From positions 18,959-82,958 of the forward strand of contig PFRX01000028.1 in assembly GCA_002788775.1 (NCBI GenBank): a stretch of DNA of 64,000 bases, written 5' to 3'. This document shows positions 46,083 through 62,114 of the stretch, one piece after another. Numbering within the stretch: the stretch's first letter is position 1; every line of letters begins with the position of its first letter. The stretch comes from Candidatus Peregrinibacteria bacterium CG_4_9_14_0_2_um_filter_53_11 (GTDB lineage Bacteria > Patescibacteriota > Gracilibacteria > UBA1369 > UM-FILTER-53-11). Below the pieces are notes generated by a model. The model was not told where the DNA came from and ran no database searches. It was given only the letters and a program-made list of their open reading frames with translations. The position numbers and the translations under genes are program-made.

Positions 46083-47147
46083 ATGTTTACGACCCAAGAC
46101 GATACGCAAGCTGTGACTGCAATACCAGCAGTTAAGGAGCTTGTAAACAACTTGCTCATCCTCCTCTCCCCCAAAGAAAAACATATTATAGAAAATCGCT
46201 ACAGTCTGAATGGGCGGCCCCACTCAACGCTGGAGCGGATTGGCCAGGAGTTCGGCGTCACCCGGGAGCGCATTAGGCAGATCGAAAAAAATGCACTTAA
46301 GAAGCTCTCAAGAAACGTCGTCAACACAAAGCTCAACATCTTCAATCAGCTCGGCAATACGATCATACAAAAATACGAAGGACTCGTCCTCGAAGAAAGA
46401 ATCATCAGTGAGATACTAAGCCTCGTGAGCTCTCCCGAGACTGTTGACCGATCCTCAATTCGCCTCTCACTCGAGCTGGACAGCAATCTTGAGCGCGTTC
46501 CAAATACCATCAACTGCTATCCCTACTTCAAGCTAAAGACACTCGAGAAGAGTGAGATCAATCGTATCGCCAGCTGGGCCCTTAAGTATCTGACCAAGAA
46601 AAAAACTGTCGAGGCCCTCGATGCTCTGGTTGCAGCTTACTCAAAGGAGTTTGCAAAGAATATCAGCAAGCAGTTTATGAGCTCAGCCCTCTCCCTCGAT
46701 CGACGGCTGAAGCTCCTCAAAAAGGGCGTGGGACTCGCTTCATGGCGCTCGATTAATCCACGCACACTCCGTGACAAGATAACCTACATCCTCAAGGATC
46801 ATGGGAAGTCCCTTCACTACGTTGAAATTGCAAATCGCATTGCCGAGAGCAAGTTCGACAAGAAGATGATCAACGTACAGGCTGTTCACAACGAGCTGAT
46901 TCGCGATGAGACCTTCGTTCTTATCGGCAGAGGGATCTATGCGCTCCGTGCATGGGGATATGTTGATGGGACGGTCGCTGATGTCATTGCGGATATCCTC
47001 CGCACCAATGGTTCTCTCGAGCGCGACGCCATCATAGCTGAAGTACTGAAGCGACGGCAGGTTAAGCGGATCACGATCATTCTCAACCTTAAGAACAAGC
47101 CTATATTCGAGCGTGTGGGACGTAACGTCTACTCTCTCAAGGGTTAA
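46083..47147 (+). CDS. Sigma-70 region-4-like HTH protein with C-terminal HARE-HTH domain
   Basis: N-terminal LSPKEKHIIENRYSL...TLERIGQEFGVTRERIRQIEKNALKKL (region 4.2-like). C-terminal ILKDHGKSLHYVEIANRI...VHNELIRDETFVLIGRGIYALRAWGY (HARE-HTH, as in RpoE-delta). Confidence 0.6.
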   Translation: MFTTQDDTQAVTAIPAVKELVNNLLILLSPKEKHIIENRYSLNGRPHSTLERIGQEFGVTRERIRQIEKNALKKLSRNVVNTKLNIFNQLGNTIIQKYEGLVLEERIISEILSLVSSPETVDRSSIRLSLELDSNLERVPNTINCYPYFKLKTLEKSEINRIASWALKYLTKKKTVEALDALVAAYSKEFAKNISKQFMSSALSLDRRLKLLKKGVGLASWRSINPRTLRDKITYILKDHGKSLHYVEIANRIAESKFDKKMINVQAVHNELIRDETFVLIGRGIYALRAWGYVDGTVADVIADILRTNGSLERDAIIAEVLKRRQVKRITIILNLKNKPIFERVGRNVYSLKG

Positions 47148-47407: not shown

Positions 47408-50230
47408 CTACTCTACCTCGACAATCTCCACGTCATCGATCCACAGCTCGCCGACCTCGTGGTCGATGTAGCGGAGGCCATCGGCGGAGACCTCTCCGTC
47501 AGAAGAACGGAAAATTAGGCGGAAGTCTGACTCGTAGTTGTTGGGAACCGTGAAGGTTCGCTCGTAGTAGGTCCAGTCGTTCACGGTATAGAGAATAGGC
47601 AGCTCCTCAAAGGCAACGAGCTCAAAGTCCTGGTTTGAGTTGGCGATACCTAGACGAGGCGTCACCGAGCCGGTTACCTTGTACCAGAAGGAGAAGGTAT
47701 ACTGTTGGCCGGCTCTAACGGGAATGCCAAGTTGCTGCGTACCGGCATCGTCGCGGCGCTGGGGGATCGGATCAGGTGGCGTCGTAATGTAGAGAGCCTG
47801 CTCACCGGAGTGAACAACATCTCTCACTTTCTGGAAGATACCGGGGCCGGCAAAAGGCAGCCACTGATCGACACCATCAGCTTCCATATCACCATCTCGG
47901 ACAAAGGCGAGCTCGGGAACCTCCTCGATCAGCACCTCATCTAGGTACCCCTCACCATTGTTAATGCGGATAACGAGACGGAAGTCCTTGATAGTACCAT
48001 CGGCATTTACGCCGATAGCCTCGGGCGTGAAAAAGCGTTCGTAGGTCTTCCAGTCACCATTCGTTGGTTGGAGGTTGACCTGTACTCCTTCAATATCCAC
48101 ATTTGATGAGCGGTTACCAAGCGTGGTCGAGAGCTTACCCGAAACCAGCTTGTATTTGAAGGCATAGCGGTAGGTTTTTCCGGCAACAACCGGGAGGTAG
48201 AGCTGCTGAACTCCCGCGTTCTTACCACGTGTATCGAGGTAGATGCCCTGGGAGGCACTCGACGCCTCTGCCGAGGTCTTTTCAAGAGTGACAGGCCTGC
48301 CCCAACTCTTCCAAGCGTCCAGCCCCGGAAGCTCCATATCTCCATCACTCACATACTCTATGGCATCCACCGCTTCAATATTCACATCATCAAGGAAGGC
48401 CTCACCACCACGGACTCTGAGTACCATTCGGAAGTCCGGAATGATTACACCCTCGCCCGCTAGAGCTGACGGAGCCATAAAGTAGCGCTCATAGGTACGC
48501 CACTCATCCGGCGCTGCACTCAGAACGGTCACCTTGCTTTCGAGGTCACCATTCGAGGTGTGGATGCCCAAGTTCGTTTCGAGGGTTCCCGACTTGAGTT
48601 TGTATCTGAAGCTGTATTTGTAAGCCTGTCCTCCCAGTACGGCAAGACCAAGCTGCTGCACTCCGGCATGCCTATTTCTCGCATCAAGATAGAGACTCTG
48701 GCGTCCGGCTGAGAACTCAGTCGTGCTCTTAGATTTGGCCGTTGGCGTTCCCCAGCTGCGCCATGCGGCGACGCCGGCAGACTCCATCGTTCCATCATTA
48801 ACCAAGTTTGTTGAGACCTGCGCCTTCAAGTTGATGACAAATGAAGGAACCAGTGGGTCGTTTAAGTTGATCGTCATCCGGGCAGTACGCTCACCAAGAT
48901 TGGGCTGGGAGAAGCGCACTTTAAATTCGGTTGAGGCACCAACGACAAGAGCATCATTAGGCACTCCCACCAAAGTGAAGAGCTCAGCCTCAGCTCCGGT
49001 AAGAGCTACCCGTGGATTACCGGTAAGCAAGAGGGTATCGGTTCCCAGATTTGAAAGGCGAATCGTAACTTCTCCAACCTCATCGGGCGCCAAGATACCG
49101 AAACTCGCCTCACCTCCTGTAGAACGAACGGAGTCATTCACCGTCAGCTTAATGCTGGGCTGCCCTTCGACAACCGGAATCTTAATGCGTCCCAGATAAG
49201 TCGCAACGCGCGTAATATTACCGTCAAAAATCCTTATAAAGAAACCACGGAGGAGGTTGAAGCGAGCACGTGCGACCACATCAGCGGTATCGAGCCCCAG
49301 AGAGGCGAAGTTCACGCCGGAGCCATCGGGCAGAACGACTCCATCACCGGCAACGACCACAGCCGAGCCATCGGAGCGCGTCACGACGATCTCATTCCCC
49401 TGAGCTCCCTGATTAACATCTCCAACAGCCGGAGCACCAACAGACTGACCTACGTTCACCGGAAAGCCGGCCAGCGCCTGCCCTGTGGCTTTACTCAAGC
49501 CGAGCAGAGTTCCATTTCGCGTAACACCAAAAAGTTTATCTCCATCCTCAGCAAGAGGTTCTACAACTGCTGAAGGCGTTGCAAACTGAGCCGTTCGGGC
49601 CCACTGACCATTAGTTTCGGCATACAGTTCAATGCGATTTTGTCCGGGAAGAGCGACGGCAAGACCCCCCTCCGATGGTGCAGTGAGGGCCCCGGCCTCA
49701 CCCAGATTGAAGAGAGGTAGAGAAGTCCAGGTACCGTTCACCAAAGAATAGTCATAACGAACAACAGCCCCACCTGTTGTCGAAAGTACAACTGAATCCA
49801 AAGCACCAGCTACGCCACGTAAGACGACGGGATCATAGTGAACATCACCCGCGATAAGTGCGCTAACAACCTCATTGCCGCCTGATGAAAAGGCATTAAG
49901 GCTGTAGACGTTCTGGGCGGTTCGCGTGACTACAACGACCTCGTTAAGTCCATTCCCCGCCACATTGGCCATCACCGGTGAGGAGACGACCACGGCATTA
50001 TCTATAAAGATCGGAAAGCCGCTCAGGAGGTTCCCCTCATATGAGTAGCCCTGAAGAGCTCCATCGCTGCTTGTTGCGAAGCGTTCGGCTCCGGGAGAGG
50101 TAGTATCGAGCTCACCGAGGGTGGGCAGAAAACTGCTCTCACGCGCGAGCGCCGTTGTGGAAGCCACGATTAGTGAGGTGAGCGCCAGCAGAGCCAGCAG
50201 ACCGAGTTTTTTACGGATTGGGATAACCAT
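47408..50230 (-). CDS. Secreted 940-aa protein: FG-GAP/VCBS-like N-terminal region, ASH/choice-of-anchor-D-like domain, three CBM-like jelly-roll modules
   Basis: Signal peptide. LLSGFPIF...ANVAGNGLNEVVVV motifs. LSNLGTDTLLLTG. Three ~150-aa paralogous modules. Confidence 0.7.
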   Translation of the reverse strand: MVIPIRKKLGLLALLALTSLIVASTTALARESSFLPTLGELDTTSPGAERFATSSDGALQGYSYEGNLLSGFPIFIDNAVVVSSPVMANVAGNGLNEVVVVTRTAQNVYSLNAFSSGGNEVVSALIAGDVHYDPVVLRGVAGALDSVVLSTTGGAVVRYDYSLVNGTWTSLPLFNLGEAGALTAPSEGGLAVALPGQNRIELYAETNGQWARTAQFATPSAVVEPLAEDGDKLFGVTRNGTLLGLSKATGQALAGFPVNVGQSVGAPAVGDVNQGAQGNEIVVTRSDGSAVVVAGDGVVLPDGSGVNFASLGLDTADVVARARFNLLRGFFIRIFDGNITRVATYLGRIKIPVVEGQPSIKLTVNDSVRSTGGEASFGILAPDEVGEVTIRLSNLGTDTLLLTGNPRVALTGAEAELFTLVGVPNDALVVGASTEFKVRFSQPNLGERTARMTINLNDPLVPSFVINLKAQVSTNLVNDGTMESAGVAAWRSWGTPTAKSKSTTEFSAGRQSLYLDARNRHAGVQQLGLAVLGGQAYKYSFRYKLKSGTLETNLGIHTSNGDLESKVTVLSAAPDEWRTYERYFMAPSALAGEGVIIPDFRMVLRVRGGEAFLDDVNIEAVDAIEYVSDGDMELPGLDAWKSWGRPVTLEKTSAEASSASQGIYLDTRGKNAGVQQLYLPVVAGKTYRYAFKYKLVSGKLSTTLGNRSSNVDIEGVQVNLQPTNGDWKTYERFFTPEAIGVNADGTIKDFRLVIRINNGEGYLDEVLIEEVPELAFVRDGDMEADGVDQWLPFAGPGIFQKVRDVVHSGEQALYITTPPDPIPQRRDDAGTQQLGIPVRAGQQYTFSFWYKVTGSVTPRLGIANSNQDFELVAFEELPILYTVNDWTYYERTFTVPNNYESDFRLIFRSSDGEVSADGLRYIDHEVGELWIDDVEIVEVE
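47411..48808 (-). repeat. Three tandem ~450-nt paralogous coding modules (CBM-like)
   Basis: Each module starts with x-DG(T/D)ME-x-x-G-x-x-x-W and contains AG(V/T)QQLG/Y and W(R/K/T)TYER. Modules begin near 48808, 48357 and 47910. Confidence 0.75.
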
Positions 50231-50255
50231 AAAGTGGGGGAAATTAAGGGGTCAG

Positions 50256-51788
50256 TTACTGTTGTAGGTCGATATCTTCTTGCTCTCTCTCCCATGGAGC
50301 GATCCACTGGTCGAGCTGCTGCTGAGAGATTGTTGCGGGGAGTTTAAAGAGGAAGGGAAGGGGCGTGTAATCTTTTTTATTGGCAACTCCCATAATATAG
50401 CCCTCGTCGTTGATCGACTGGACCGTGTAACTGAACGGCCCCCACTCGTAGGTCTGCCAGTCCAGATTTTCGGGAAGAAGTTTCTCAATCTGCACAACCT
50501 TCTCGCCATCCCATAACAGAGGACGCATGCGGGGATAAAAGGCCTTATCCTCAACAAGGCCCGATCCAACCACCTGCCCCTTGTTATTGAGGCTGAGGTT
50601 TTCTGCACCCTCCCAGAGCTTCTTCATTACACCATCCTGCCAAAGATAGGTAGCGGAGGGAAATGCGTTATCAGGCTCGGCAGGCTCCTCGGCAAATCCC
50701 ACCACCTGCCCCTGTTCGTTGATCTCGAGCGGGGTGTTCCTCGCGCCGCCAAAGGTCGGTAAGACGGTTAGCGTGCCATGATCAAATAAGAAACCTATAT
50801 CGTAGGCAGAATCCGGCTTACTCGGCATCGTGCCGATCATCTGGCCCTTGTTATTGATGCGAAAGACGGAGATGTTTTTACCTTTGTTTGGAAGCTCATC
50901 ATTATGAAATGCCCCATCGTACCAGAGGAAGCTGGCAGACTCGGCTCCGCCCCTCAAGACTTGATCCCCAACAACCTGTCCAAGATCGTTAATTGAAGTA
51001 GCTGTGCCTTCAAAACCGCGGCCGCCAATTAAGGTGATCTTGCCATCGTCCCAGAGGAAGGGGCGATTAGGAGTGTCTCCTTCTCTGCCACCAACAACTC
51101 CCACAACCTGCCCCTTACTATTAACATCGAAAGGCACGTAGTAGTAGTTGGAGTCGGTAGAATAGGCCCGGGAGCTACCATTGCTCCAGAGATGGCCCTC
51201 AAAGGCCAGTGCTCCTTCACTATTAAGGTGGAGGTCGCCATTTGAAAGATGATCGGTCCCCAACTCCAGCTCGAGCACTCCCCCCTCGGGAAGGTAGAGC
51301 TTGGGTAGCTTCCGACTCTGCTGGATCGTATAAGCCTCCTCCTTATAAGTCTTGAGCTGAACCTCCGGAAGAGTTACCACATCTTTTTCAGAGTGGCGCT
51401 GATCGGCCTCCAGATAGCCCTGATCAATTGCGACCTTCTGAGCAGACTGAATAAGATAGAGCTGCTCCGTCTCAGCCGACCGAACAAAAGTCGTTCGTCG
51501 CAGCCTTAGGAGCTCGCGGAACGAGACCTGCCGAGCATCACGATAGCTGAGTCCCAACTCTCTGAGTGTTTTTGAAGAAATAGCCACCCGCCTGCCCTTT
51601 TCTACGACGTAAACGGTACGACGATTTTTAGCCCGCACCAGATCGACTCCCAGTGCCGTTGCCTTTTCAGAGACGACGCTGAGCTGCCCGCTCTCGCCTC
51701 CCGCACCAACGGCCGCATGAGCGGGAAGAGTCCCGACAAGAAGGGTTAGAAGCAGAAGTCCGCTGGTGAGTGAGATGGATTTTTTCAT
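50256..51788 (-). CDS. Secreted HAF-repeat-like (beta-propeller) protein
   Basis: Signal peptide, then repeated units ...INDLGQVVG..., NNKGQMIG, NEQGQVVG, NNKGQVVG, NDEGYIMG alternating with FLW-DG / YLWQDG / LLWDG. This is the pattern of the HAF extracellular repeat. Confidence 0.7.
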   Translation of the reverse strand: MKKSISLTSGLLLLTLLVGTLPAHAAVGAGGESGQLSVVSEKATALGVDLVRAKNRRTVYVVEKGRRVAISSKTLRELGLSYRDARQVSFRELLRLRRTTFVRSAETEQLYLIQSAQKVAIDQGYLEADQRHSEKDVVTLPEVQLKTYKEEAYTIQQSRKLPKLYLPEGGVLELELGTDHLSNGDLHLNSEGALAFEGHLWSNGSSRAYSTDSNYYYVPFDVNSKGQVVGVVGGREGDTPNRPFLWDDGKITLIGGRGFEGTATSINDLGQVVGDQVLRGGAESASFLWYDGAFHNDELPNKGKNISVFRINNKGQMIGTMPSKPDSAYDIGFLFDHGTLTVLPTFGGARNTPLEINEQGQVVGFAEEPAEPDNAFPSATYLWQDGVMKKLWEGAENLSLNNKGQVVGSGLVEDKAFYPRMRPLLWDGEKVVQIEKLLPENLDWQTYEWGPFSYTVQSINDEGYIMGVANKKDYTPLPFLFKLPATISQQQLDQWIAPWEREQEDIDLQQ

Positions 51789-51807
51789 GGGGGTGGTTAA
51801 GATAGTA

Positions 51808-52215
51808 CTAATTGGCTTGGATTAGGTGTGCATCGGGAGAAGGCACTGCTTCAGGCTTCTGCTCATCTTCGTCAAAAAAAATCTTATCTTCCAAATCGAT
51901 ACAGGGCCCCATTTTCGTTATATTAGGGCTCGTCGTGTCGAATAGGCAGACGTAACGAGCATTATCACTTAGACGTAGTTCAATACGGCCGTATCCCGCA
52001 TGGTTCTGCCCAAAACTATAGGCTTGGTGCTCTCCGTCCGGATAGACTACCTCCAACCTCTTAGTATCGTCTCGGCCCGGTGAATCATTCTCAACCCTGC
52101 TGAACGACACCCTGGTTCCATCCGGTGTGATCCAAAGGGTACCGGAAGATCGTCCGCAGGCAGCCACGAGTATCAGTAGTGTAAGTGAGAGAAGTGTTAT
52201 TATGGTGATTTTCAT
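51808..52215 (-). CDS. Small lipoprotein (135 aa), function unknown
   Basis: Lipobox LVAACG. Lies in the Rhs operon, 31 nt downstream of the preceding gene. Confidence 0.6.
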   Translation of the reverse strand: MKITIITLLSLTLLILVAACGRSSGTLWITPDGTRVSFSRVENDSPGRDDTKRLEVVYPDGEHQAYSFGQNHAGYGRIELRLSDNARYVCLFDTTSPNITKMGPCIDLEDKIFFDEDEQKPEAVPSPDAHLIQAN

Positions 52216-52246
52216 GCTTTAGGTTTTGAAAATAATCATATACGGA

Positions 52247-52828
52247 TTAATAGATTTTAATATAAACCCACTCATCATCAATTCTTTCAGGTGCTAACTC
52301 TCTCCTTTCAAGTACAACTTTTCCACGAACCGTCATAGGAAAATTGACCTCGTAAAGACATGAAAAAATTTGCGGACAATAAAGTATCATCTTTTCTCCA
52401 CCTATTGCTCCAAAACTTTTAAAAAAACTGAGTGCGAAGGCTGGACTTGAGCCAATAATTGAAACCTCCTTGCTCGCGGTAACGCTGGGTTCGTATGTGA
52501 GGAGATCATATCCTAGCGCATCGTCTGGATCGGGAACAGATACAACATACTTGGGAACCAAATCTGAGATACCCACAGGATATTCACCAAGATCCAATTT
52601 ATATTGATTTATTGCCTGTACGAGTGGGGAGTATTGAGCCAATGAACGAGACAGAAATGCGTTCTCAATAAATGGCGATAGTACCATAAATAAGAATAAC
52701 AAAAATACATTACTCAGTAGCAGCATATATTTTCTAGGGAAAAAAATTATCTCCGCATACCTTTTTTGCAAAAAATGGTTGATAACATTAAGTGCCGATA
52801 AAAATAGGAGAAAGTAAAGGTATGTCAT
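52247..52828 (-). CDS. AT-rich small membrane protein (193 aa); candidate immunity protein for the Rhs toxin
   Basis: Starts 8 nt after the Rhs stop. Two N-terminal TM helices. Shares the low G+C of the toxin tip. Confidence 0.55.
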   Translation of the reverse strand: MTYLYFLLFLSALNVINHFLQKRYAEIIFFPRKYMLLLSNVFLLFLFMVLSPFIENAFLSRSLAQYSPLVQAINQYKLDLGEYPVGISDLVPKYVVSVPDPDDALGYDLLTYEPSVTASKEVSIIGSSPAFALSFFKSFGAIGGEKMILYCPQIFSCLYEVNFPMTVRGKVVLERRELAPERIDDEWVYIKIY

Positions 52829-52836
52829 GCTAGTGC

Positions 52837-55800
52837 TTATTTAGTCTTCCAGTAATCATAGCCGGGAGCAGAAATAAAAGTGTACCCTAACTCATATTCA
52901 AGTGCTTTGTTGAGTTTTTGGTCATCAATATTTAAACCGTATTTTTGGTACAAAGTTATGCCGGTTTTAATAAGCATCTGATCCGTTGGATCGTCAAAAT
53001 AAGATGCATACCAGTCGGTGTCAGAAGTACGGCTATATATTTGTGCGGCACCAGCACCGGAAAGCAATGTAGTGGAGGGTATTCCAGCTGCTGCGCCTGT
53101 GTAACCAAAATTTATATTGCCTCTGGCATCAAAAAGCACTCTGTTGTCAGTTACACCAGCTAATGTAACCGGCTCTGTAGAACCAAAACGTTTTACATCC
53201 TGAATTTTATAATCCCAATCTCCACCTGGTTTGACGTGATTAAAAAACTGAATATATGTTGATGCTCTTTCCGCCTCATATAGTAACCCGGCTGCAGCTT
53301 TTGCCCCCACTCTTGCTCCGGGCCTCCACCATGGTATCTTATTCGCCTCTTTCAGTGCTTCCGCACGTACTAACAAGTCGTGCTGATAAGCATTAGCCAT
53401 CTCTTTCCCGTTAGCTTTCAACTTCTGGATAAGATCACTCGTTGGGTCAAAACAGATGGAGCAAACTGATGTTGCAGATGCTGAGGAACTGGCAAGTAAG
53501 ATAGGTGTCGAGGCATAACTTGAGTTATCTTCTATAATCTGTTCCGTTACCGCCTCCGACTCATTTCCCGTCGGGTCAGTATACCTTAAGGGGTTATTAT
53601 TTGCGTAAGCGTAGGAGTTCCTTGAGATCAGACTACCAACTGCCCCCATGTACTTGTCGCGGCTTATAAAGCGGCCCGTTGTTGGGTTGTAGTAGCGGGC
53701 GTTGTAGTAGAAGAGGTTGGACTCGGAGTCGTACTCCTGGCCCGTAAAGAGGTAGCGGGTCTCATCACTTCCAAGCGAACCGATAATCTCTCCGTAGGGA
53801 TCGTAGTCGTACTGCTGAGTGATCTCACCGGCTTCATTACTCAACATAACGGCGGAGCCGAGGGCATCGGAGTGTACGAAGATGATTCGTCCTTGGGCGT
53901 CAATCTCTGCCACCTCTCCAACTCCCTGAACGATCGTCCTTTCCACTCCACCATTGGTGTTGAGCTCGTTCAGGACGGTCAGCCCATCATTGAAGTAGTA
54001 GGTCGAGTCGGAGCCGTTGACGGTCTTCTTGATTCGATTGCCCGCGTCATCATAGGCAAAGGTCAGGCTGTTCTCATTGAGCTGAGGCATGAAGTTGGGA
54101 CGAGAGGCGTCCGTGTAGCGAATCTGGGAGAGTCGGTTCTGAACATCCCAGCTGTAGCTGACGTTCTTGAGTGGCTGGCCCAGACGAGAGTAGCTCTCAC
54201 GGGTGAGTGAGCCGTTGCCGTCATACTCCATCGCAACGGTCAGACGGCCGTTGGTCGTGTAGGAGCGGAGCTCCTCAGAGTCGTTTGCGTAACTGTAAGA
54301 GGTCGAGCCGAGCGCCGAGCCCAGGCTCAGACGATTTCCTTGAGCGTCATAGTTAAAGCGGAGGTCCTGAGCTCCGGCTACGTCGGTATAGTCGACAGTC
54401 TTGAGCTGATCGAGAAGATCATAGGTGTAGTTGATAGTTCGGTCGGTATCGGTACCATCCACAGAGGTGCGCTCCACAAGCTGAGTTCTATTACTCTGAG
54501 CATCGAAGTCGTACTCGTGAGCGAAGAGCTCGTTGTTCTGAGCGTCACGGAGGGTAATGTTATCGAGACGATTCAGTGAGTCATAGCCGTAGCTTGTGGC
54601 CAAGCCGTTCCCATAGGTAAGTTCGGTTGGCTGGGCGAGGGCGTTGTACTCATAGGTCGCGAGTGCACTTCCACCGAAGGTCACAGTGTCGAGCAGGCCT
54701 CGGCTGTCGTAGTTGTAGTCCAGGAGCCGTCCGGCGGCATCCGTTAGAGTGTTGAGCTTACCATCGGCCGTGTAGGTGCGGTTCACAGCATACGACTGAC
54801 CGTTGAGGTCGGTGTAGGTTTTCGTCTCACGGGTTCTCAGGTTGAGGAGGTCATACTGATAGCTGGTTGTACCAACAGGCTCGACGAGCTGGGTAAGCTG
54901 ATCCCAGTTATCGTAGCTGTAGTTGAAGATTGAGCCATCATCAAGAGCCTTGCGGGTAAGGCGACTCTTAGCGTCGTAGGCGAAGGTCGTGAGCTGCCCC
55001 TCTCCATCGGTCTTCTGAGTAATGTTCCCCAGAGCATCATAGTCAAAGCCTTCCGTCTTATTGCCCGGGTGGGTTATCTGCGTAACGCGGTTAAGGGCAT
55101 CGTAACTAAAGGCGGTGACAGTACCCCCCGTCGTCTCGGCGAGACGATTACCGTTGTTATCATAGGTGTAGCTGGTGACTGTTTCTACTGCGTTGCTCTC
55201 TGTTAAGAGGCGGTTGAGCTTGTCGTAGGTGTAGGTCGTCGTGTGATTGAGCCAGTCGCTCTCGCTGGTGGTGTTGCCCGCGGCATCGTAGAGATAGTCG
55301 AGAGTAGCTCCCGAGACGTTGGTAACGGTTGTGAGACGGTTCGCATTGTCATAGTCGTAATTGGTAACGGTGTTATCCGGGGCTGTAACCTGCACCTTGT
55401 TGCCGTTGCCATCAAAGACTGTGACCGTAAGATTCTGGTCGGCATCACGCTGCTGGATGGCTCTGCCGAAGTCGTCATAGGTAGAGCTGACCGTGCGTCC
55501 AAGCTCATCAGTCCTGCTCGTCAGATTAGAGAGCGCGTCGTAGGTGTAGCTAACATGGGCCCCCTTGGCATCCGTCGTCTGAGTCTTTCGATCAAGATTA
55601 TCGTAGGTGTGAGTGGTGACGTGGGCACTGTTGTTACCATTGGCATCCTTGCGGTCAACAACCTGCAGCAGATTGTTCTGCTTGTCATAGGTGAAGGTCG
55701 TCTCTTTGTTCAAAGAGTTCCGCTCCAAGATGAGGCGGTTCATCTCGTCATAGCCATAAGTTGCCGTATTCCCATCCGCATTGCGCAGAGCGGGGTCGGC

Positions 55801-58800
55801 GTTGGCACGGGCATCGCGAACACCTGTTCTATTACCGTTCGCATCATAGGTGTAGGAGGTGAGGCCACCCGCCGTATCAGTTACGGAGGTCAGGCGTCCA
55901 AGGAGGTCATAGGTCGTGGTCGTCGTCTGCCCCTTGGGATCGGTCGTACTTACGAGCTCATCAAAGCCATCATAAGTGTAGGTGGTCTCAACAAATGAGG
56001 TCTGACCGGCATCAACGAACTTCTTCGATGAGAGGAGGTTGTTACGACCATCATAGCTAAAGACTGAAGACTGGCCCTGAGTGTTGCTCTCGCTCACCTT
56101 GTTACCATTGCGGTCGTACTGAAACGTCGTCGTATTATAGGGGGCAGCTATAGCTGAGACACGATTGGCATCGTCATAGCTGTAGCTGGTGACAACATCG
56201 CGCGCATCAACATCCCTCACCTTGTTGCCAACGAAGTCGTACTCACTACTCGTGAAGATGGTCTCACCGCGAGGGCCTGTGATCGACGTTGAGAGAAGGC
56301 TCTCCTCGATGTCAGTGTCGTAAACATAGGTCGTGACACGTCCCTGTGGATCGTTCTTCTGGATAAGATGGTCCTCACTGTCGTAGATGTAGGTCGTGAC
56401 ATTTCCCGCCGGATCCTGGGCCCGCTTCAGGTTGCCGTGACTATCGTACTGGAACTGAGAGACAAAGCCGCGCGCGTTGGTCACACTCGTCTTGTTACCA
56501 AAAACATCGTAGACGTAGCTTCGCTGAACCAGCTGAGTTGAGCCATCGGGAAGGGTTACCGTAATCGACTCCCCCGTTCTGTAGTTCTGGGCGGCATCGT
56601 AGGTGTAGTCGGTGACGTTGTTGTTCTTATCCCATGAGCGGAGGATGTTTCCCCTATTGTCATAACTAAAGCGCTCCTGCCCACCGAGATCGTAGTTGAT
56701 GGTAAGGAGGTTTCCGTTACTCTGGTCGTAAACAAAGTTGGCAGATCGGATAACAACCGTTGCCGGGTTGACGAGAGAGGTTGCCGTCTTGGTCTGAACA
56801 CTGACCTTGTTAACTACGGGGTGGTACTGATAGGTCGTGACCGTGTTCCAGCCGTGACTAAATGGTTGCTGCTGACGGGTTACTCTGCGGTACTGATCAT
56901 AGTCGTAGAGCGTCGCATTGCCGTTTGGATCGGTAACACGCGTGGCCATGCCATCAGGATTATACTGGTATGAGGTCGCTCCACCATTATCGCCTTCTTT
57001 TTCGTAGATCTTAAGACCCTCCTGATCAAAACAGGTATAGGTCTTGTAGAAGTCGGGATCATCACCTGAGCGGAAGTTTTTCACGGTCGTACATGAGGTG
57101 CTTCCGGGGACGTTTCCGTCGGGAGCATCCGTGTAGCTCAAGGTGTAGATGCGTCGTTGATCGTTGGCACCGAGACGAGGGTTCTTTTCGTCCTGGCGGA
57201 TGACACGTCCTTGATCGTCATAGGTATTGTAGAGGACCGTTCCACGCGCATCCGTATAGGTGGCCATACGGTCGTTATCATAGGTGAAGGTTCGAACGAG
57301 ATTTTCAGTTGAGCCGTTAAACGAGCGGACATTGGTCACCGTGGTAAGGAAGCCACTTTCGTAACCATAGCGAACCAGCCGGTGGTCCTGAGTATTCAGA
57401 TTATCGTGAACTTCGGTAATCTTATCGAACATCTCCCCATCATCCTCTGCACCATAAACGAAGCTGACCGTTCGGCCCGAGGCATCGGTAATAGTTGTAA
57501 GAAGTGGAATATCGCGACGCTGAATATAAGTGAAAGCGGTGACATTTCCCTTAAGATCAGTAATCTGCTCAACCATGCCGAGCTGCGTTGTCCTCTTATA
57601 GGTAAAGTCATAGCGAACGCCATCAAATGTGGTGTAAGTCAGGAGGGCATTGTCCGGCGTTCCGTTGTTGACCAAGGTTCCATCAACACCTTTCGGTGCA
57701 ACGAAGGTCGCGCCGTTATCATTGGTCGTAAAGAGGGCCGCGAGGGTACCTCCAAGATAGACGAGAACATTTCTCGTAGCTGGATCCTGGTAGTAGTACA
57801 TGTTGGTGGAGTGATTCCATCCAAAACCGATACGGTTATTCTTGTCGACCACGCGGCTGTTGTAGCTGCGCGTTATGTTTATGGGAATACCACGCCCCTT
57901 GAGCTCAAGATCGGTCTGAATGAACTCAAAGACTCCCGTACGGATGTTAACCGGATCGGCGGCGTAGTTGATTGCCAGCTTGTCAACCAAGGTCGAAAGC
58001 CAGTTTGAGGCATTCAGCTGGAAGAGGGAGACCGTCTGAGCACCATTAACATTAGTTCCGACATACTTCTCTTCAAGATCAGAGAAGGTGTCTCTATCGG
58101 TATCAGAGAGCTCTTCCGGATCTGGTGGGGGGGTTGCACCTCCTCCGCCACCTCCGCCCGGGCTACAGTTTCCACAGTAGCCGCTGCGCTCAACGGTAAA
58201 GATCTGATCCGAGTCAACCGCATTGTTGTTGTAGTTACGCTCGCTCAAACTGTTTGCGGTGTTCATGCCAAGGACAAGCACATAGCTATCGTTGAAGGGA
58301 ATATTTCCGGGCACAACACCTGAGAGCGTCCTCAAAACATTGGCACCGGCAGAGATATCGAGGGAGGCCGGATTGTGCGACGTTAACTGGTAAAGCTCCC
58401 CTGTGCTCGTCGACTGGAGTACAAGAATGTAGGGAAGACCGATGGCCGTGATATTGCCCGAGTTCATGATACGAGCCTGCGCCTCGAGACGCTCGCCTGA
58501 GATAAATGTGTGGACGTTCTGAACGTCCAGATTGACGGGGTAGATATCGCGAGTCTCAGGGACGGTAAAGCTCACTGAGCTCTTATTGTTACCTTCACTG
58601 CTCTCATTGGTGATCTCGTCCAGATTGTCGACCCAGAAGGAGAAGTAGTAGGTCCCCGAGGCAGTCCCCTCCGGAACGGTATAACTTATAGATTCGCTGC
58701 TCGTATTACTTCCGCTACCACTGGCCTGAAGAGTTCCAAACGAGTCATTTCCTATGCTATTTCCATCTGAGTAAGAAGGGTTGGAGCGACTAATATAATA

Positions 58801-61284
58801 GCGCACGTGGCCGGAGTCGTTCGCCGCACCCTGACCATTATTTCGAACCTGCAGGCTGAGCGTCGTGGAGTCACCGGGATAGACCGAATTATCCGTTAGG
58901 CTGGCATTGGCGTAGGTGATATCAGAAAGTTGCGCACGCGCATTTACGGTAAGCGCACGCGTGAACTTGTTATTGCTCTCGTTCGACTCGGCAATCTGTT
59001 GCAGTGAGTCTATCCAGTAGTAAAAAGTGTAGTTTCCGGGAGCCAGATCATTGGGGATTGTATAGCTGAAGCTAACCTGAGTCGTGCTATTTGCATTAAT
59101 CGCGTTAAATGTCCGGTAGCCGACATAGTAGGTACCGGAATAATCCTCGCCAACTCCACTGGGTCTCAGGTAGTAAGAGATGCGCCCGGTCCGTCCGGTG
59201 CTAACACTCCCACGGTTGGAGATCGTATTTGTGATAGTGTAAACCTCGCCTTGATCGATACTTGCCACAGCGGATGAGCCCCCGGAAGTAAGATCCGGGA
59301 AGAGAGCCGGTGCCGTGGTATTTACCTTAAGGTAAGGACCGTTGTCATTAGCATTCCGTGAAGAGCTGAAAATCATCAACTTGTCGGGCCAAGCGGGGCG
59401 GGCACCGCTGTTCCACGTGGGTGTTGGCTCAACCAAGAGGCCATAGTTATTTCGAGCACCACTGAACCAGTCACGAACGAGGTTACTGACCGTCCAGCTG
59501 TACCAGCCGATGCTCTGAGTGTTTACATCTCGAAAACCGATGTCGGTCATCCTACCTCGGATGTCATTGTAGTGGAAGTCCCAATCACGTTGCCAGAAAG
59601 TATCAATCCTTCGCGCAACCGTCGAGACGCTTCCCCTGAAACTACCATTCCCCAGAGTCGTTCGGAGATACATTAAGAGGAAGGCGGAGTTGATCGTGTA
59701 GTTCGCGGGGATCGCACTGATATTGAACTTCATGATCGGATGACGTGTCGCGAGGTCACGACTGGAATAGCCCATATAAAGATCGGCTGATTCGGTCCAG
59801 CTACCAGCTATATACCTAAGGTAAAAGTCAGTTGTCGAAAAGCTATTGTTCTGACAAGAAAGCCCGTTCCCATTGAGGTCGCGATTTCCTGCAAGACAGA
59901 AGTAGTACTCGGGATCGATCGTGACCGGGTACTGGCGCTCTTTGGACAAAAGGTAGTCGGCGCTAAGCTTGAGCCCGATCCTCACGACACTCTGAGTGTA
60001 GTCGATATCGACAATCTGCTTAACAGGGAAAACCTGATCGGAGAGCTCGAGCTCTTCCGGGGTGGTGCCGGCACTTTTATCATAGACTAAAGCATCGGTG
60101 ATCCTGAAGAGACTTCCACTGGGAGTCTTAACATTCAGAGTAGTCTTCTCCATCTCAGTCCGGCCGGCCTCAAGAGGCTTTCCGTTGGAATCGATCAGGA
60201 GCGACCCCGCAGGAAGCTTATACTGCTCCCAGAATACGGCATCCTCGCCTTCCTTCAAATTAGTGGGAAGAGAGTTGAGTATAATTTTTCGCTCTCGGTA
60301 CGCTCCCTTATCGGCGAACTGTACGTCGATTCCCTTATAGACGTTCTCCAAGGTAGTCACCGTGGCCGTATCCTCATCTCTCTGGCTAAACTGAGGCTTG
60401 AGTACGGGCCAGTTCGTCGCCCCTTCCTCGTAAGCGCCCGGCATAATGGTAATGGCCTCACCATCTTCCAGCGGAACACTGAAGAAGTAACCTTCATCGA
60501 CGGCCTCGTTGAACTGGGTGCCCTGAAGCTCATTAAACAAGTTCCAGCCGGCTTCTCGGACCATGAGCTTCTCCCCATCTTTGTAGAGAAGTCGAGGCTC
60601 AGAGAAAAGGCGGTACTCATACTCGCCATTTCCCAGATCGACCACATCAGTCATCTGGTCTACGACTTGCAGATGGTCCGCGATGAACTCGGGTGAGTCT
60701 TTGGTGTAGTCATCGAGTTTGTAGTAGGGATAGATCTTAGTCTCTTGAGGATTAATCGTCGCCTCCGGGTCGGCCTTGACCTCTGTGTCAGCCTCCACCT
60801 CAGGTTCGGTAAGCGGAGTGGCATCTTCTTCTTCTGGGAAGGGACCATAGTAGAGCTGCTCGCCGCTGTCATCCAAGACCTCTGGAGAGTAGGGGCCGTC
60901 CGGATTAGCGAGAGCTTCCTCGACAGCCGATTCTGCGATGGGCTCGGCAAGAGGGAGTTCTTCAGAGTCGTCCTGGACGACCGGGGCGACGGGCTCGACG
61001 GGAAGTTCAACCACCGGAGCCGGCTCGACAGGCTCTTCCACAAGCTCCACGGGAGCCTCTGCGGGCTCGACGGGCTCCTCTGCAACCGGTGCCGCATCTT
61101 CTTTCGCCGGCGCGGGTGTCTCTTCTTCCACAACCGGCTCGGCGGGAGGCGCCTCCACGGCGGGAAGCTCCACTTGAGTCAAGGGAGGTTCTGAGACCGT
61201 CGTCTGAGCAAGGGCTGGAAGCAGCGACTCAGCTACGAGCAAAAAGCTAAAGAAAACCGACGTGGCTACCTTCAAAAGTTTCAT
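52837..61284 (-). CDS. Rhs/YD-repeat polymorphic toxin (about 2815 aa) with Sec signal peptide
   Basis: MKLLKVATSVFFSFLLVAESLLPALAQ signal. P/E/A/V-rich spacer, DNRLRE-like and about 4 CARDB-like domains, poly-Gly linker. Rhs shell runs from DPVNIRTGVFEF through tens of YD repeats to YYNARYYNPTTGRFISRD...NNPLRYTDPTG, then a 242-aa C-terminal tip. The track ORF extends to 61317. Confidence 0.92.
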   Translation of the reverse strand: MKLLKVATSVFFSFLLVAESLLPALAQTTVSEPPLTQVELPAVEAPPAEPVVEEETPAPAKEDAAPVAEEPVEPAEAPVELVEEPVEPAPVVELPVEPVAPVVQDDSEELPLAEPIAESAVEEALANPDGPYSPEVLDDSGEQLYYGPFPEEEDATPLTEPEVEADTEVKADPEATINPQETKIYPYYKLDDYTKDSPEFIADHLQVVDQMTDVVDLGNGEYEYRLFSEPRLLYKDGEKLMVREAGWNLFNELQGTQFNEAVDEGYFFSVPLEDGEAITIMPGAYEEGATNWPVLKPQFSQRDEDTATVTTLENVYKGIDVQFADKGAYRERKIILNSLPTNLKEGEDAVFWEQYKLPAGSLLIDSNGKPLEAGRTEMEKTTLNVKTPSGSLFRITDALVYDKSAGTTPEELELSDQVFPVKQIVDIDYTQSVVRIGLKLSADYLLSKERQYPVTIDPEYYFCLAGNRDLNGNGLSCQNNSFSTTDFYLRYIAGSWTESADLYMGYSSRDLATRHPIMKFNISAIPANYTINSAFLLMYLRTTLGNGSFRGSVSTVARRIDTFWQRDWDFHYNDIRGRMTDIGFRDVNTQSIGWYSWTVSNLVRDWFSGARNNYGLLVEPTPTWNSGARPAWPDKLMIFSSSRNANDNGPYLKVNTTAPALFPDLTSGGSSAVASIDQGEVYTITNTISNRGSVSTGRTGRISYYLRPSGVGEDYSGTYYVGYRTFNAINANSTTQVSFSYTIPNDLAPGNYTFYYWIDSLQQIAESNESNNKFTRALTVNARAQLSDITYANASLTDNSVYPGDSTTLSLQVRNNGQGAANDSGHVRYYISRSNPSYSDGNSIGNDSFGTLQASGSGSNTSSESISYTVPEGTASGTYYFSFWVDNLDEITNESSEGNNKSSVSFTVPETRDIYPVNLDVQNVHTFISGERLEAQARIMNSGNITAIGLPYILVLQSTSTGELYQLTSHNPASLDISAGANVLRTLSGVVPGNIPFNDSYVLVLGMNTANSLSERNYNNNAVDSDQIFTVERSGYCGNCSPGGGGGGGATPPPDPEELSDTDRDTFSDLEEKYVGTNVNGAQTVSLFQLNASNWLSTLVDKLAINYAADPVNIRTGVFEFIQTDLELKGRGIPINITRSYNSRVVDKNNRIGFGWNHSTNMYYYQDPATRNVLVYLGGTLAALFTTNDNGATFVAPKGVDGTLVNNGTPDNALLTYTTFDGVRYDFTYKRTTQLGMVEQITDLKGNVTAFTYIQRRDIPLLTTITDASGRTVSFVYGAEDDGEMFDKITEVHDNLNTQDHRLVRYGYESGFLTTVTNVRSFNGSTENLVRTFTYDNDRMATYTDARGTVLYNTYDDQGRVIRQDEKNPRLGANDQRRIYTLSYTDAPDGNVPGSTSCTTVKNFRSGDDPDFYKTYTCFDQEGLKIYEKEGDNGGATSYQYNPDGMATRVTDPNGNATLYDYDQYRRVTRQQQPFSHGWNTVTTYQYHPVVNKVSVQTKTATSLVNPATVVIRSANFVYDQSNGNLLTINYDLGGQERFSYDNRGNILRSWDKNNNVTDYTYDAAQNYRTGESITVTLPDGSTQLVQRSYVYDVFGNKTSVTNARGFVSQFQYDSHGNLKRAQDPAGNVTTYIYDSEDHLIQKNDPQGRVTTYVYDTDIEESLLSTSITGPRGETIFTSSEYDFVGNKVRDVDARDVVTSYSYDDANRVSAIAAPYNTTTFQYDRNGNKVSESNTQGQSSVFSYDGRNNLLSSKKFVDAGQTSFVETTYTYDGFDELVSTTDPKGQTTTTTYDLLGRLTSVTDTAGGLTSYTYDANGNRTGVRDARANADPALRNADGNTATYGYDEMNRLILERNSLNKETTFTYDKQNNLLQVVDRKDANGNNSAHVTTHTYDNLDRKTQTTDAKGAHVSYTYDALSNLTSRTDELGRTVSSTYDDFGRAIQQRDADQNLTVTVFDGNGNKVQVTAPDNTVTNYDYDNANRLTTVTNVSGATLDYLYDAAGNTTSESDWLNHTTTYTYDKLNRLLTESNAVETVTSYTYDNNGNRLAETTGGTVTAFSYDALNRVTQITHPGNKTEGFDYDALGNITQKTDGEGQLTTFAYDAKSRLTRKALDDGSIFNYSYDNWDQLTQLVEPVGTTSYQYDLLNLRTRETKTYTDLNGQSYAVNRTYTADGKLNTLTDAAGRLLDYNYDSRGLLDTVTFGGSALATYEYNALAQPTELTYGNGLATSYGYDSLNRLDNITLRDAQNNELFAHEYDFDAQSNRTQLVERTSVDGTDTDRTINYTYDLLDQLKTVDYTDVAGAQDLRFNYDAQGNRLSLGSALGSTSYSYANDSEELRSYTTNGRLTVAMEYDGNGSLTRESYSRLGQPLKNVSYSWDVQNRLSQIRYTDASRPNFMPQLNENSLTFAYDDAGNRIKKTVNGSDSTYYFNDGLTVLNELNTNGGVERTIVQGVGEVAEIDAQGRIIFVHSDALGSAVMLSNEAGEITQQYDYDPYGEIIGSLGSDETRYLFTGQEYDSESNLFYYNARYYNPTTGRFISRDKYMGAVGSLISRNSYAYANNNPLRYTDPTGNESEAVTEQIIEDNSSYASTPILLASSSASATSVCSICFDPTSDLIQKLKANGKEMANAYQHDLLVRAEALKEANKIPWWRPGARVGAKAAAGLLYEAERASTYIQFFNHVKPGGDWDYKIQDVKRFGSTEPVTLAGVTDNRVLFDARGNINFGYTGAAAGIPSTTLLSGAGAAQIYSRTSDTDWYASYFDDPTDQMLIKTGITLYQKYGLNIDDQKLNKALEYELGYTFISAPGYDYWKTK
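52840..53565 (-). other. C-terminal toxin domain of the Rhs protein (polymorphic toxin type 44 / Ntox44-like?)
   Basis: The 242 aa after the DPTG cleavage motif. KPGGDWDYK ... GNINFGYTGAAAGIPSTTLLSGAGAAQI resembles the motif pattern I associate with the Ntox44 family. Lower G+C than the Rhs core. Confidence 0.5.
53566..57957 (-). other. Rhs shell (YD-repeat core plus RHS-associated core domain)
   Basis: Bounded by the N-terminal plug motif ADPVNIRTG (57957) and C-terminal PxxxxDPxG (NNPLRYTDPTG, 53566-53577). Repeated xxGxxxxYxYDxxGNL units throughout. Confidence 0.85.
60925..61200 (-). repeat. Low-complexity Pro/Glu/Val/Ala-rich tandem coding repeats (Rhs N-terminal spacer)
   Basis: VEEPVEPAEAPVELVEEPVEPAPVVELPVEPVAPV. 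Creates spurious ORFs in several frames. Confidence 0.75.
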
Positions 61285-61412
61285 ATGAGGGAGGATAAAA
61301 ATGTTCGTAACACACAATGTCCCGCCGGAAGGCGAGTGACATTAGTGGCATAATATATCACGAACTCGGCCCAAAGCCAGCAAAGCCAAAGGAAAACGGT
61401 GGCCTGACCAGG

Positions 61413-62114
61413 CTAATTATTGTCTGGGCGCGAGGGCTCGAATCTAATAATGCAGTTTAGGCAGATCTCCTCGGAATTGTCGTCACTGGGGCTCTCGGTC
61501 GGCTCTTCTACGGTCATCCCGGCCTCAGTAACCAGAGCGATGATCTCCTCCTTTGTGAAAAAGTTAAAAAGGCGGTTTGAGTTGACGCGCCTTTCGCCGC
61601 CACTTCTGAGGTACTTCTCGCCCCCGAGACGTTTTTTAACTCGGATAAAACCCCGAGCTCCCGGCCTGGCAACCCGCCGCACCTCAGCCAAAACCTCGGA
61701 CACCATCTCATCAGGCATATGAAGTAGAACGGAACGGAGACAGACAGCATCAAATGAGGCTTCCGCAAAGGGAAGGGCACGACCATTGGCCACGACAAAA
61801 CTCACATGAGGATGAGCGCGTCGAGCCTCCTCAATAAACTCGGGGACCGGATCAGCCCCGACAGCCCGGTGTCTCTGAGCAAAAAAAGCCGTATCCCTAC
61901 CCCCGGCACATCCCAGATCGAGCACAGTGCCGCCTTCGGGAAGACCCTTATCGAAAGCGCGGATCTCAGCCGGCTGGAGCCCCGCTATCTTAGAAACATA
62001 CTCGGCGGCATGAGCTCGATACCAAGCGAGGGTCTGGTCATGGGCGACCACAGGGTCAAGGCCCGCTGTCGGGGTCTCACCATCGGAATGGGATGTAGCT
62101 TCTGGCGGTCTCAT
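61413..62114 (-). CDS. Class I SAM-dependent methyltransferase
   Basis: Motif I VLDLGCAGGRD, with post-I and motif II spacing typical of Methyltransf_11/25. Confidence 0.8.
   Translation of the reverse strand: MRPPEATSHSDGETPTAGLDPVVAHDQTLAWYRAHAAEYVSKIAGLQPAEIRAFDKGLPEGGTVLDLGCAGGRDTAFFAQRHRAVGADPVPEFIEEARRAHPHVSFVVANGRALPFAEASFDAVCLRSVLLHMPDEMVSEVLAEVRRVARPGARGFIRVKKRLGGEKYLRSGGERRVNSNRLFNFFTKEEIIALVTEAGMTVEEPTESPSDDNSEEICLNCIIRFEPSRPDNN

Follow-up and report, generated by a model that had tools for sequence, protein, structure and literature searches.

The window analysed here is a 64,000-nucleotide (nt) stretch of contig PFRX01000028.1 of Candidatus Peregrinibacteria bacterium CG_4_9_14_0_2_um_filter_53_11, and it contains five consecutive minus-strand open reading frames (ORFs). 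In order, they encode a large Rhs protein, a 193-amino-acid (aa) membrane or exported protein, a 135-aa lipoprotein, a 510-aa HAF/DUF3466 protein, and a 940-aa protein with an N-terminal beta-propeller and three carbohydrate-binding modules (CBMs) at its C-terminus (Table 1). We interpret this cluster, with fair confidence, as a Sec-dependent Rhs polymorphic toxin locus of three layers in which the last two genes are tied to the Rhs. The layers themselves recur among relatives: a conserved Rhs carrier with an exchangeable toxin, an exchangeable cassette of small genes, and conserved secreted partners at the 3' end. Gene 1 is very probably an Rhs polymorphic toxin, and its partners are probably tied to it functionally, whereas any particular role that we might assign to them is tentative.

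The interpretation is carried by the linkage of the partners to the Rhs. Full-length Rhs orthologues are found in seven of the 11 genomes of the same family, several of which have more than one copy, with 35–50% identity over an alignment from about residue 210 to about residue 2590. All six family loci with DNA downstream of the Rhs have the same gene order: the Rhs is followed by one to eight small ORFs unrelated to the small genes of the window, by a HAF gene (23–32% identity), and by a homologue of the last gene that is conserved over its first 300–490 residues only. Neither partner is present in the four family members without this Rhs, nor in 49 of the 50 genomes that represent 18 further families of the order, the exception being a propeller gene in genome G015; the HAF gene was found in none of these 50. 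Fourteen genomes of this 61-genome sample encode other types of Rhs, matching in the shell only, and lack both partners, indicating that the partners go with the Rhs type carrying DNRLRE and CARDB domains and not with Rhs shells in general. A profile of the propeller and the adjoining immunoglobulin (Ig)-like domain matched the same nine genomes among 205 of the order and yielded no new propeller (the match in G125 covers the Ig domain only); the propeller gene is thus absent from about 195 other genomes of the order, G015 excepted.

Beyond the family, a hidden Markov model (HMM) of the propeller (346 positions) gave 81 matches at E ≤ 1e-30 among 1.84 billion representative sequences. About 55 of these match once, with the whole profile and at the extreme N-terminus of proteins of 425–2266 aa, and form a family of about 55 clusters at 50% identity with a fixed N-terminal propeller and a variable C-terminus, while the weaker matches are multi-repeat proteins that match single blades. 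A word-indexed search with the propeller part returned only the query, which reflects the sensitivity limit of that search, since the full HMM found the family. The genomic contexts of 11 N-terminal matches and of one genome of another order of the class (G396) were read (Table 1). Together with the window and the six family loci, 15 loci are linked, one is unlinked (G015), and five are unreadable because they lie at contig ends, so that the propeller gene stands beside an Rhs of the same N-terminal type in 15 of the 16 readable loci on which this count is based. A HAF gene lies between the two in 10 of the 15 linked loci, and the unreadable locus L022 has an 11th HAF copy at the edge of its contig. 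This Rhs type is thus tightly and anciently linked to the propeller gene and, in most cases, to the HAF gene.

What changes freely between loci is the toxin tip and the small genes. The earlier note on this DNA had named free variation of the neighbouring genes around a retained Rhs as the observation that would speak against its five-gene unit; such variation is confined to the two small genes, as expected of immunity genes, so that the outcome favours the note. The most elaborate case is the nine-ORF insert of locus L035, with four orphan cassettes that each start with an Rhs-core fragment and with Imm44, DUF4259, and HEAT proteins, which, judging from its sequence, represents a classic array of orphan toxin and immunity genes inserted ahead of the conserved partners. 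In addition, the distance matrices of Rhs shells and propellers are correlated (Mantel r 0.78, p ~2e-4), and the two loci of genome G004 are not sisters, each pairing with loci of other genomes in both matrices. Both findings suggest that the unit is old and inherited as a block.

These patterns bear on whether the downstream genes might be ordinary surface proteins that share a surface-protein island with the Rhs and have no functional coupling to it. We consider this very unlikely, because the adjacency is kept although propeller identity falls to 24–59% and all other neighbours change, because the pairing outlasts up to nine inserted cassette genes as well as a reversal of the gene order, and because the propeller family is missing wherever this Rhs type is missing, G015 apart. 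An island would nevertheless account for the large secreted proteins encoded elsewhere in the genome that share the CBM triple and for the G015 propeller-family gene without an Rhs alongside, and HAF, CBM, and Ig domains are general building blocks of adhesins.

The Rhs assignment is supported along the length of gene 1. Its open frame reaches back to a TTG at 61317, yet the ATG 11 codons further on, at 61284, precedes a textbook signal peptide with typical n-, h-, and c-regions ending in ALA before Q (judged by eye), and is the likelier start because gene callers give a protein of 2815 aa on 18 other contigs. The shell matches RHS_repeat (PF05593) with 309.9 bits in 11 stretches and TIGR01643 with 228 bits, and the Rhs-associated core (TIGR03696) is found with 73.6 bits at residues 2505–2584. 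Sequence searches of the PDB with the shell recover Rhs shells down to E 2e-45, the best being Rhs proteins from type VI secretion systems (T6SS), with weaker matches to teneurin-like proteins. The conserved body gives way to the variable tip at the DPTG motif: the PxxxxDPxG boundary is present as PLRYTDPTG, and relatives align up to residues 2584–2595 and then diverge.

The earlier note had described a Sec-signal Rhs toxin with an adhesion-type N-terminal array, and this description is borne out by the signal peptide and by the DNRLRE and CARDB matches. Its naming of Rhs, DNRLRE, HAF, and three CBM-like modules likewise agrees with Pfam and NCBIfam profile matches. Of the roughly four CARDB-like units that it proposed, the array as such is present, with one strong copy (residues 674–787), a second at E 1.8e-6 (804–903), and a marginal third at E 0.39 (934–1034); the count is taken from Pfam because a self-BLAST of the region showed no internal repeats. 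The TSP3-like elements that it listed have no Pfam match in the Rhs. Residues 195–520 have no Pfam match either, although most of this segment belongs to a domain conserved among relatives, whose alignments begin at about residues 205–215; the low-complexity stalk ahead of it is not kept in relatives. A Gly-rich linker separates the CARDB array from DUF6531.

The toxin tip of the window contains a full-length Ntox44 domain (PF15607; 64.7 bits against a cut-off of 24, profile positions 1–104). The motifs DxK, GNxxxG, and DxxxD, which are listed for this family together with a predicted RNase activity (PMC3482391), are present as DYK, GNINFG, and DDPTD, and a PDB sequence search with the tip gave nothing significant. 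The GC content is 0.529 in the Rhs body, 0.435 in the toxin tip, 0.371 in the 193-aa gene, 0.485 in the 135-aa gene, and 0.53–0.54 in the two partner genes. Their shared low GC gives the tip and the 193-aa gene the appearance of a single imported cassette, which makes the latter the probable gene for the cognate immunity protein. This protein has two hydrophobic helices at its N-terminus, joined by a basic loop, which are predicted to place its 140-aa C-terminal part outside the cell; if translation starts at the alternative Met35, the protein has 159 aa and a single signal-like helix. A GspG-like pseudopilin match (PF08334) at QAINQYKLDLGEYP (residues 61–91, positions 52558–52650) was considered and rejected as not significant (E 0.19). 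The 135-aa lipoprotein may be a second immunity protein, an orphan immunity protein, or an accessory of the variable cassette. Neither small protein has a domain-family match, and a word-indexed search of 5.8 billion clusters returned only the queries.

Two other Ntox44 tips, on contig C3 of genome G006 and contig C10 of genome G043, also precede multi-helix membrane proteins, and the proteins after the three independent tips show no mutual sequence similarity. With both small proteins of the window predicted to be membrane-bound or exported, the envelope, and not the cytoplasm, may be the site of toxin action; the succession of membrane proteins after all three Ntox44 tips also suggests an envelope target and casts doubt on the RNase annotation of Ntox44. 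On contig C10 of G043, we also observed a 331-aa 'mini' toxin (L024:5735-6730, minus strand) in which a signal peptide is followed by an Rhs core segment and Ntox44, without a shell.

The small genes also inform the question of which cells the system is aimed at. A role against the host or prey of a presumed epibiont, through attachment, lysis, or nutrient release, would suit a 1.2-Mb, Candidate Phyla Radiation (CPR)-type genome and the adhesion-type domains found throughout the cluster, and in G396 the propeller gene comes straight after the Rhs, without an immunity gene in between. However, variable small genes, orphan cassettes, Imm44, and DUF4259 in the canonical position are a sign of conflict between relatives, and we regard a system aimed at hosts or prey instead of competing relatives as unlikely, bearing in mind that the two aims are not mutually exclusive.

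Both partner proteins are predicted to be secreted and to contain beta-propellers. The 510-aa protein starts with a signal peptide (read by eye) and matches HAF (TIGR02913) with 67.9 bits against a cut-off of 22.65 and DUF3466 (PF11949) with 32.4 against 25.1. Its AlphaFold2 model, with a mean predicted local distance difference test (pLDDT) score of 77.5, consists of two tandem beta-beta-beta-alpha-beta-alpha repeats of about 50 aa (residues 40–155) and a beta-propeller (190–482). The model of the 940-aa protein (mean pLDDT 70.8) shows a beta-propeller at residues 37–300, a disordered linker, and an Ig sandwich at 360–472; both models were built on shallow alignments of 7–9 sequences. The earlier note had placed FG-GAP repeats in the 940-aa protein, which has no such match even at E 0.5, its modelled N-terminus being a generic beta-propeller instead. 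Foldseek neighbours of the partner models are generic propellers as well (BamB, an archaeal S-layer YVTN+PKD protein, PknD, TolB, and a trilobed protease), so that the fold names no function. The C-terminus of the 940-aa protein matches CBM_4_9 with 104.8 bits over three stretches, from which glycan binding is predicted only. Within the propeller family, this end is swapped for Laminin_G_3, cadherin-like, CarboxypepD_reg, or fn3 domains. Two further large secreted proteins of the same bacterium, both with CARDB domains, terminate in the CBM triple as well (41–43% identity), which may be a shared module for surface anchoring or for a common ligand. The target or host recognition that the earlier note derived from these modules therefore stands as one possible reading, and an anchor to the producer's own surface fits equally well.

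Such an anchor is central to the view that the propellers are producer-side helpers only, which fold, mature, or anchor the Rhs in the producer's wall after Sec export and have no share in target recognition, the wall polymer of the producer itself being the ligand of the lectin-like end. The CBM triple as a shared C-terminal module of three secreted proteins is typical of wall anchors, an S-layer homology (SLH) domain protein points to a Gram-positive-type wall polymer, and scaffold propellers (BamB and the S-layer YVTN+PKD protein) are among the Foldseek neighbours. The swapping of the last protein's end between lineages (CBM_4_9, three Laminin_G_3 modules, cadherin-like, or CarboxypepD_reg/fn3) is, in contrast, what receptor-binding parts under diversifying pressure show, although swapped ends could also track differences in wall polymers. 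We judge a purely producer-side role to be improbable.

Under the interpretation as a Sec-dependent toxin locus with tied partners, Sec would export all proteins of the cluster into a wall that lacks an outer membrane, a lack that we deduce for this bacterium from its CPR affiliation together with the SLH protein. The propeller proteins would then attach to the DNRLRE/CARDB array and keep the Rhs at the cell surface, and the variable lectin-like end of the last protein would bind a glycan of either the producer's wall or a target cell. On contact, the Rhs core would cut off the toxin tip and release it onto or into the neighbouring cell, where the toxin may act on the envelope rather than the cytoplasm. 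Surface display and contact dependence of the Rhs are properties that we infer. A more specific possibility, which we would at present bet against, is that the propellers form an in-trans delivery or targeting apparatus for Sec-exported Rhs toxins in cells without an outer membrane, with the lectin-like end setting which cells are hit.

Several points weigh against this interpretation or its parts. The HAF gene is not obligatory, since five linked loci lack it (L026, L027, L034, L036, and L050), and G015 keeps its propeller-family gene away from any Rhs. Linkage alone could produce the correlated distance matrices. Docking between the Rhs and its partners is an interaction that we infer, and occurrence of the CBM triple in two other secreted proteins weakens a dedicated targeting role. 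The immunity role of the 193-aa protein is putative, the protein being unlike the membrane proteins after the other Ntox44 tips, and the predicted RNase role of Ntox44 fits poorly with exported immunity candidates. A scan of the cluster for promoters and terminators gave counts no better than in shuffled sequence, and co-transcription of the five genes would follow from their spacing and synteny only.

Table 1. Coordinates of the toxin cluster, of related loci, and of other features of the host genome. Positions without a prefix are those of the window; L, C, and G denote loci, contigs, and genomes. Rhs residues are counted from the TTG at 61317.
Feature	Position	Strand	Remarks
Rhs polymorphic toxin gene	52837..61284	-	2815 aa from ATG 61284; open frame 52837-61317, reaching TTG 61317
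Sec-type signal peptide, residues 12-37	61207..61284	-	MKLLKVATSVFFSFLLVAESLLPALA, followed by Q; read by eye
Pro/Glu/Ala/Val-rich low-complexity stalk, residues 38-200	60718..61206	-	
Conserved N-terminal domain of unknown fold (205-510) and DNRLRE (511-666)	59320..60705	-	
CARDB-type Ig array, residues 674-1040	58198..59298	-	Pfam
DUF6531, residues 1121-1178	57784..57957	-	N-terminal plug-type domain ahead of the Rhs shell
RHS/YD-repeat shell and Rhs-associated core	53566..57783	-	ends PLRYTDPTG at about residue 2585
Variable C-terminal toxin tip, residues 2590-2826	52840..53550	-	includes Ntox44, residues 2690-2792
Orphan membrane or exported protein, 193 aa	52247..52828	-	8 nt downstream of the Rhs
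Orphan lipoprotein, 135 aa	51808..52215	-	lipobox LVAAC
Secreted HAF/DUF3466 protein, 510 aa	50256..51788	-	conserved accessory gene 1
Propeller/CBM protein, 940 aa	47408..50230	-	conserved accessory gene 2
N-terminal beta-propeller, residues 37-300	49331..50122	-	family-defining part of accessory gene 2
Ig-like sandwich, residues 360-472	48815..49153	-	choice-of-anchor-D/HYDIN-type; in the 940-aa protein
Three CBM_4_9-like jelly-roll modules, residues 475-940	47411..48808	-	in the 940-aa protein
Leader examples of the G-poor/C-rich type	61285-61300, 51789-51800, 50231-50250	-	
Locus L027			Rhs, two small ORFs, propeller gene; no HAF
Locus L028/29			Rhs with GIY-YIG tip, leucine-rich repeat protein, HAF-like gene, propeller gene
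Locus L032/33			split Rhs, two small ORFs, DUF3466, propeller gene with cadherin-like and laminin G (LamG) end
Locus L035			Rhs, nine ORFs, DUF3466, propeller gene with three LamG modules
Nine-ORF insert of L035	L035:352-7879		
Locus L034			Rhs core fragment immediately upstream of the propeller gene
Locus L036 (G396, another order of the class)	L036:4591-14717		2709-aa Rhs, ~50 nt, propeller gene
Loci L026 and L050			order reversed, with the propeller gene ahead of a gene that matches the Rhs N-terminal array
Small membrane protein after Ntox44 tip, G006 C3	L013:8747-9376		
Small membrane protein after Ntox44 tip, G043 C10	L024:5203-5733		
Other CBM-triple protein	C31:10859-15091	-	triple at extreme C-terminus
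Other CBM-triple protein, 1903 aa, CARDB/CBM	C39:16848-22559	-	triple at extreme C-terminus
SLH-domain protein with DKNYY	C39:22563-24149	-	directly upstream of the 1903-aa CARDB/CBM protein
Second, different Rhs	C31:24087-28961 (L039:8087-12961)	+	outside the window; signal peptide, SpvB, FG-GAP, TcdB_toxin_midN, DUF6443, RHS repeats

The five genes are separated by gaps of 8, 31, 19, and 25 nt, exactly as the earlier note had given them. That note had also seen export signals in all products but the 193-aa protein; signal peptides or a lipobox are indeed recognizable by eye in the four others, and the 193-aa protein read from Met35 has a signal-like helix too. A methyltransferase gene on the same strand (61413-62114) flanks the cluster upstream, and a convergent sigma-region-4/HARE-HTH gene (46083-47147) downstream. 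The cluster is unchanged on 18 contigs from several samples, and the sole match among species-representative genomes is a Candidatus Peregrinibacteria metagenome-assembled genome with 44% identity. In locus L036, the stretch between the Rhs and the propeller gene contains no immunity-sized ORF, and the propeller gene seems broken into several frames.

The host genome comprises 1.2 Mb in 49 contigs and is 99% complete. Its start-codon leaders are G-poor genome-wide, only 3% of 501 long ORFs having GGAG no farther than 18 nt from the start, and Shine-Dalgarno pairing therefore seems not to be used and cannot serve as evidence for an operon. A C-rich run (CCTCCC or CCCCC) was observed just ahead of the ATG in three of the five cluster genes. 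The SLH-domain protein is evidence for an S-layer-type envelope or a Gram-positive-type wall polymer in this CPR bacterium, as read from its domains. The second Rhs, on contig C31, is truncated where the contig ends and has the look of a TcB/TcC fusion.

CPR bacteria spend their lives attached to other cells, and to our knowledge little is known about the molecules that they use at this interface. As about 14 kb of the 1.2-Mb genome are given over to the cluster, which different genera have retained, the toxin and its partners are likely important to this lifestyle. It is an open question how toxins of the Sec-exported Rhs, WapA, and teneurin-like kinds, which have no injection machine, get out of their shell and arrive at a target (PMC13018210). 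This type of locus offers two conserved, co-inherited extracellular proteins as candidate partners and thereby makes the question testable. If the propellers were indeed an in-trans apparatus, they would give a first handle on targeting by Rhs/YD toxins without a delivery machine, as well as insight into how a CPR epibiont attacks or discriminates neighbouring cells.

The earlier note had held the gene combination to be a delivery context not described for Rhs toxins. Sec export as such is a listed delivery class for RHS-repeat toxins (PMC3482391, Table 1), and WapA (PMC12704120) and bacterial teneurin-like proteins (PMC13018210) likewise represent Sec-exported, surface-associated YD/Rhs toxins; the part of the claim that holds is that the conserved propeller partners appear undescribed. 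In full-text searches of the literature, we found no paper linking Rhs with HAF/DUF3466 and none on Rhs systems in Patescibacteria.

An experimentally studied example of a Sec-exported Rhs toxin is WapA of Bacillus subtilis and Streptococcus suis (PMC12704120, PMC5566331). The Rhs of the window resembles WapA in its N-terminal Sec signal, its Rhs shell and core, and its polymorphic tip followed by what in the window is a putative immunity gene, as well as in the lack of an injection machine and in an envelope that would have no outer membrane. WapA has wall-binding repeats at its N-terminus, and we know of no conserved partner genes that accompany it. Unlike in WapA, the N-terminus of the window Rhs consists of a Pro-rich stalk, DNRLRE, and CARDB, and secreted propeller genes travel along with it; identity with WapA was rejected, since Pfam and NCBIfam contain no wall-binding family that matches this N-terminus.

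The T6SS Rhs effectors (PDB 8h8b, 7q97, 8cp6, and others) provide the best shell matches and share the DUF6531 plug, the core autoprotease region, the exchangeable tip, orphan cassettes, and, as a principle, conserved accessory genes. Unlike in these effectors with their PAAR/VgrG adaptors and Eag chaperones, a signal peptide takes the place of the adaptor, and the accessory genes encode unrelated secreted propellers. Neither PAAR nor WXG100 has a match anywhere in the host genome, with positive controls for both. This agrees with the earlier note, which had seen no component of a T6SS or type VII secretion system (T7SS), and on these grounds T6SS or T7SS cargo was rejected.

Similarities to the Tc (ABC) toxins lie in the Rhs/YD cocoon and in a C-terminal toxin, which the core cleaves off in Tc toxins and would cleave off here. 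The Tc cocoon acts together with a beta-propeller and with a distinct partner for receptor binding whose gene lies nearby. Unlike that pore-forming pentamer, the partners found here are propeller proteins of about 500–940 aa, and a TcB/TcC identity was rejected because the window Rhs has neither SpvB nor TcdB_toxin_midN. TcA (VRP1) had no match in the host genome, in a search for which the control genomes gave none either.

Finally, bacterial teneurin-like proteins are Sec-exported, surface-associated YD toxins whose delivery is explicitly unexplained, and the survey that describes them lists positive genomes in six phyla, none of them CPR (PMC13018210). Like these proteins (PDB 9pt5 and 9ifo), the Rhs of the window would be Sec-dependent, with a YD shell presumed to be surface-exposed, an N-terminus of the variable adhesion type, and polymorphic tips with putative immunity genes. 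The teneurin-like chains in the PDB match its shell weakly and only at residues 1525–1685. Membership was rejected, as the defining features of teneurin-like proteins are an FN-plug and a shell-fused NHL beta-propeller (PMC13018210), neither of which has a match in the window Rhs, where DUF6531 occupies that position. Unlike in teneurin-like proteins, the propellers of the window are separate proteins encoded downstream of the Rhs. As part of the doubtful in-trans reading, and by analogy with these systems, they may replace the fused NHL propeller of teneurin-like proteins or the TcA of Tc toxins.

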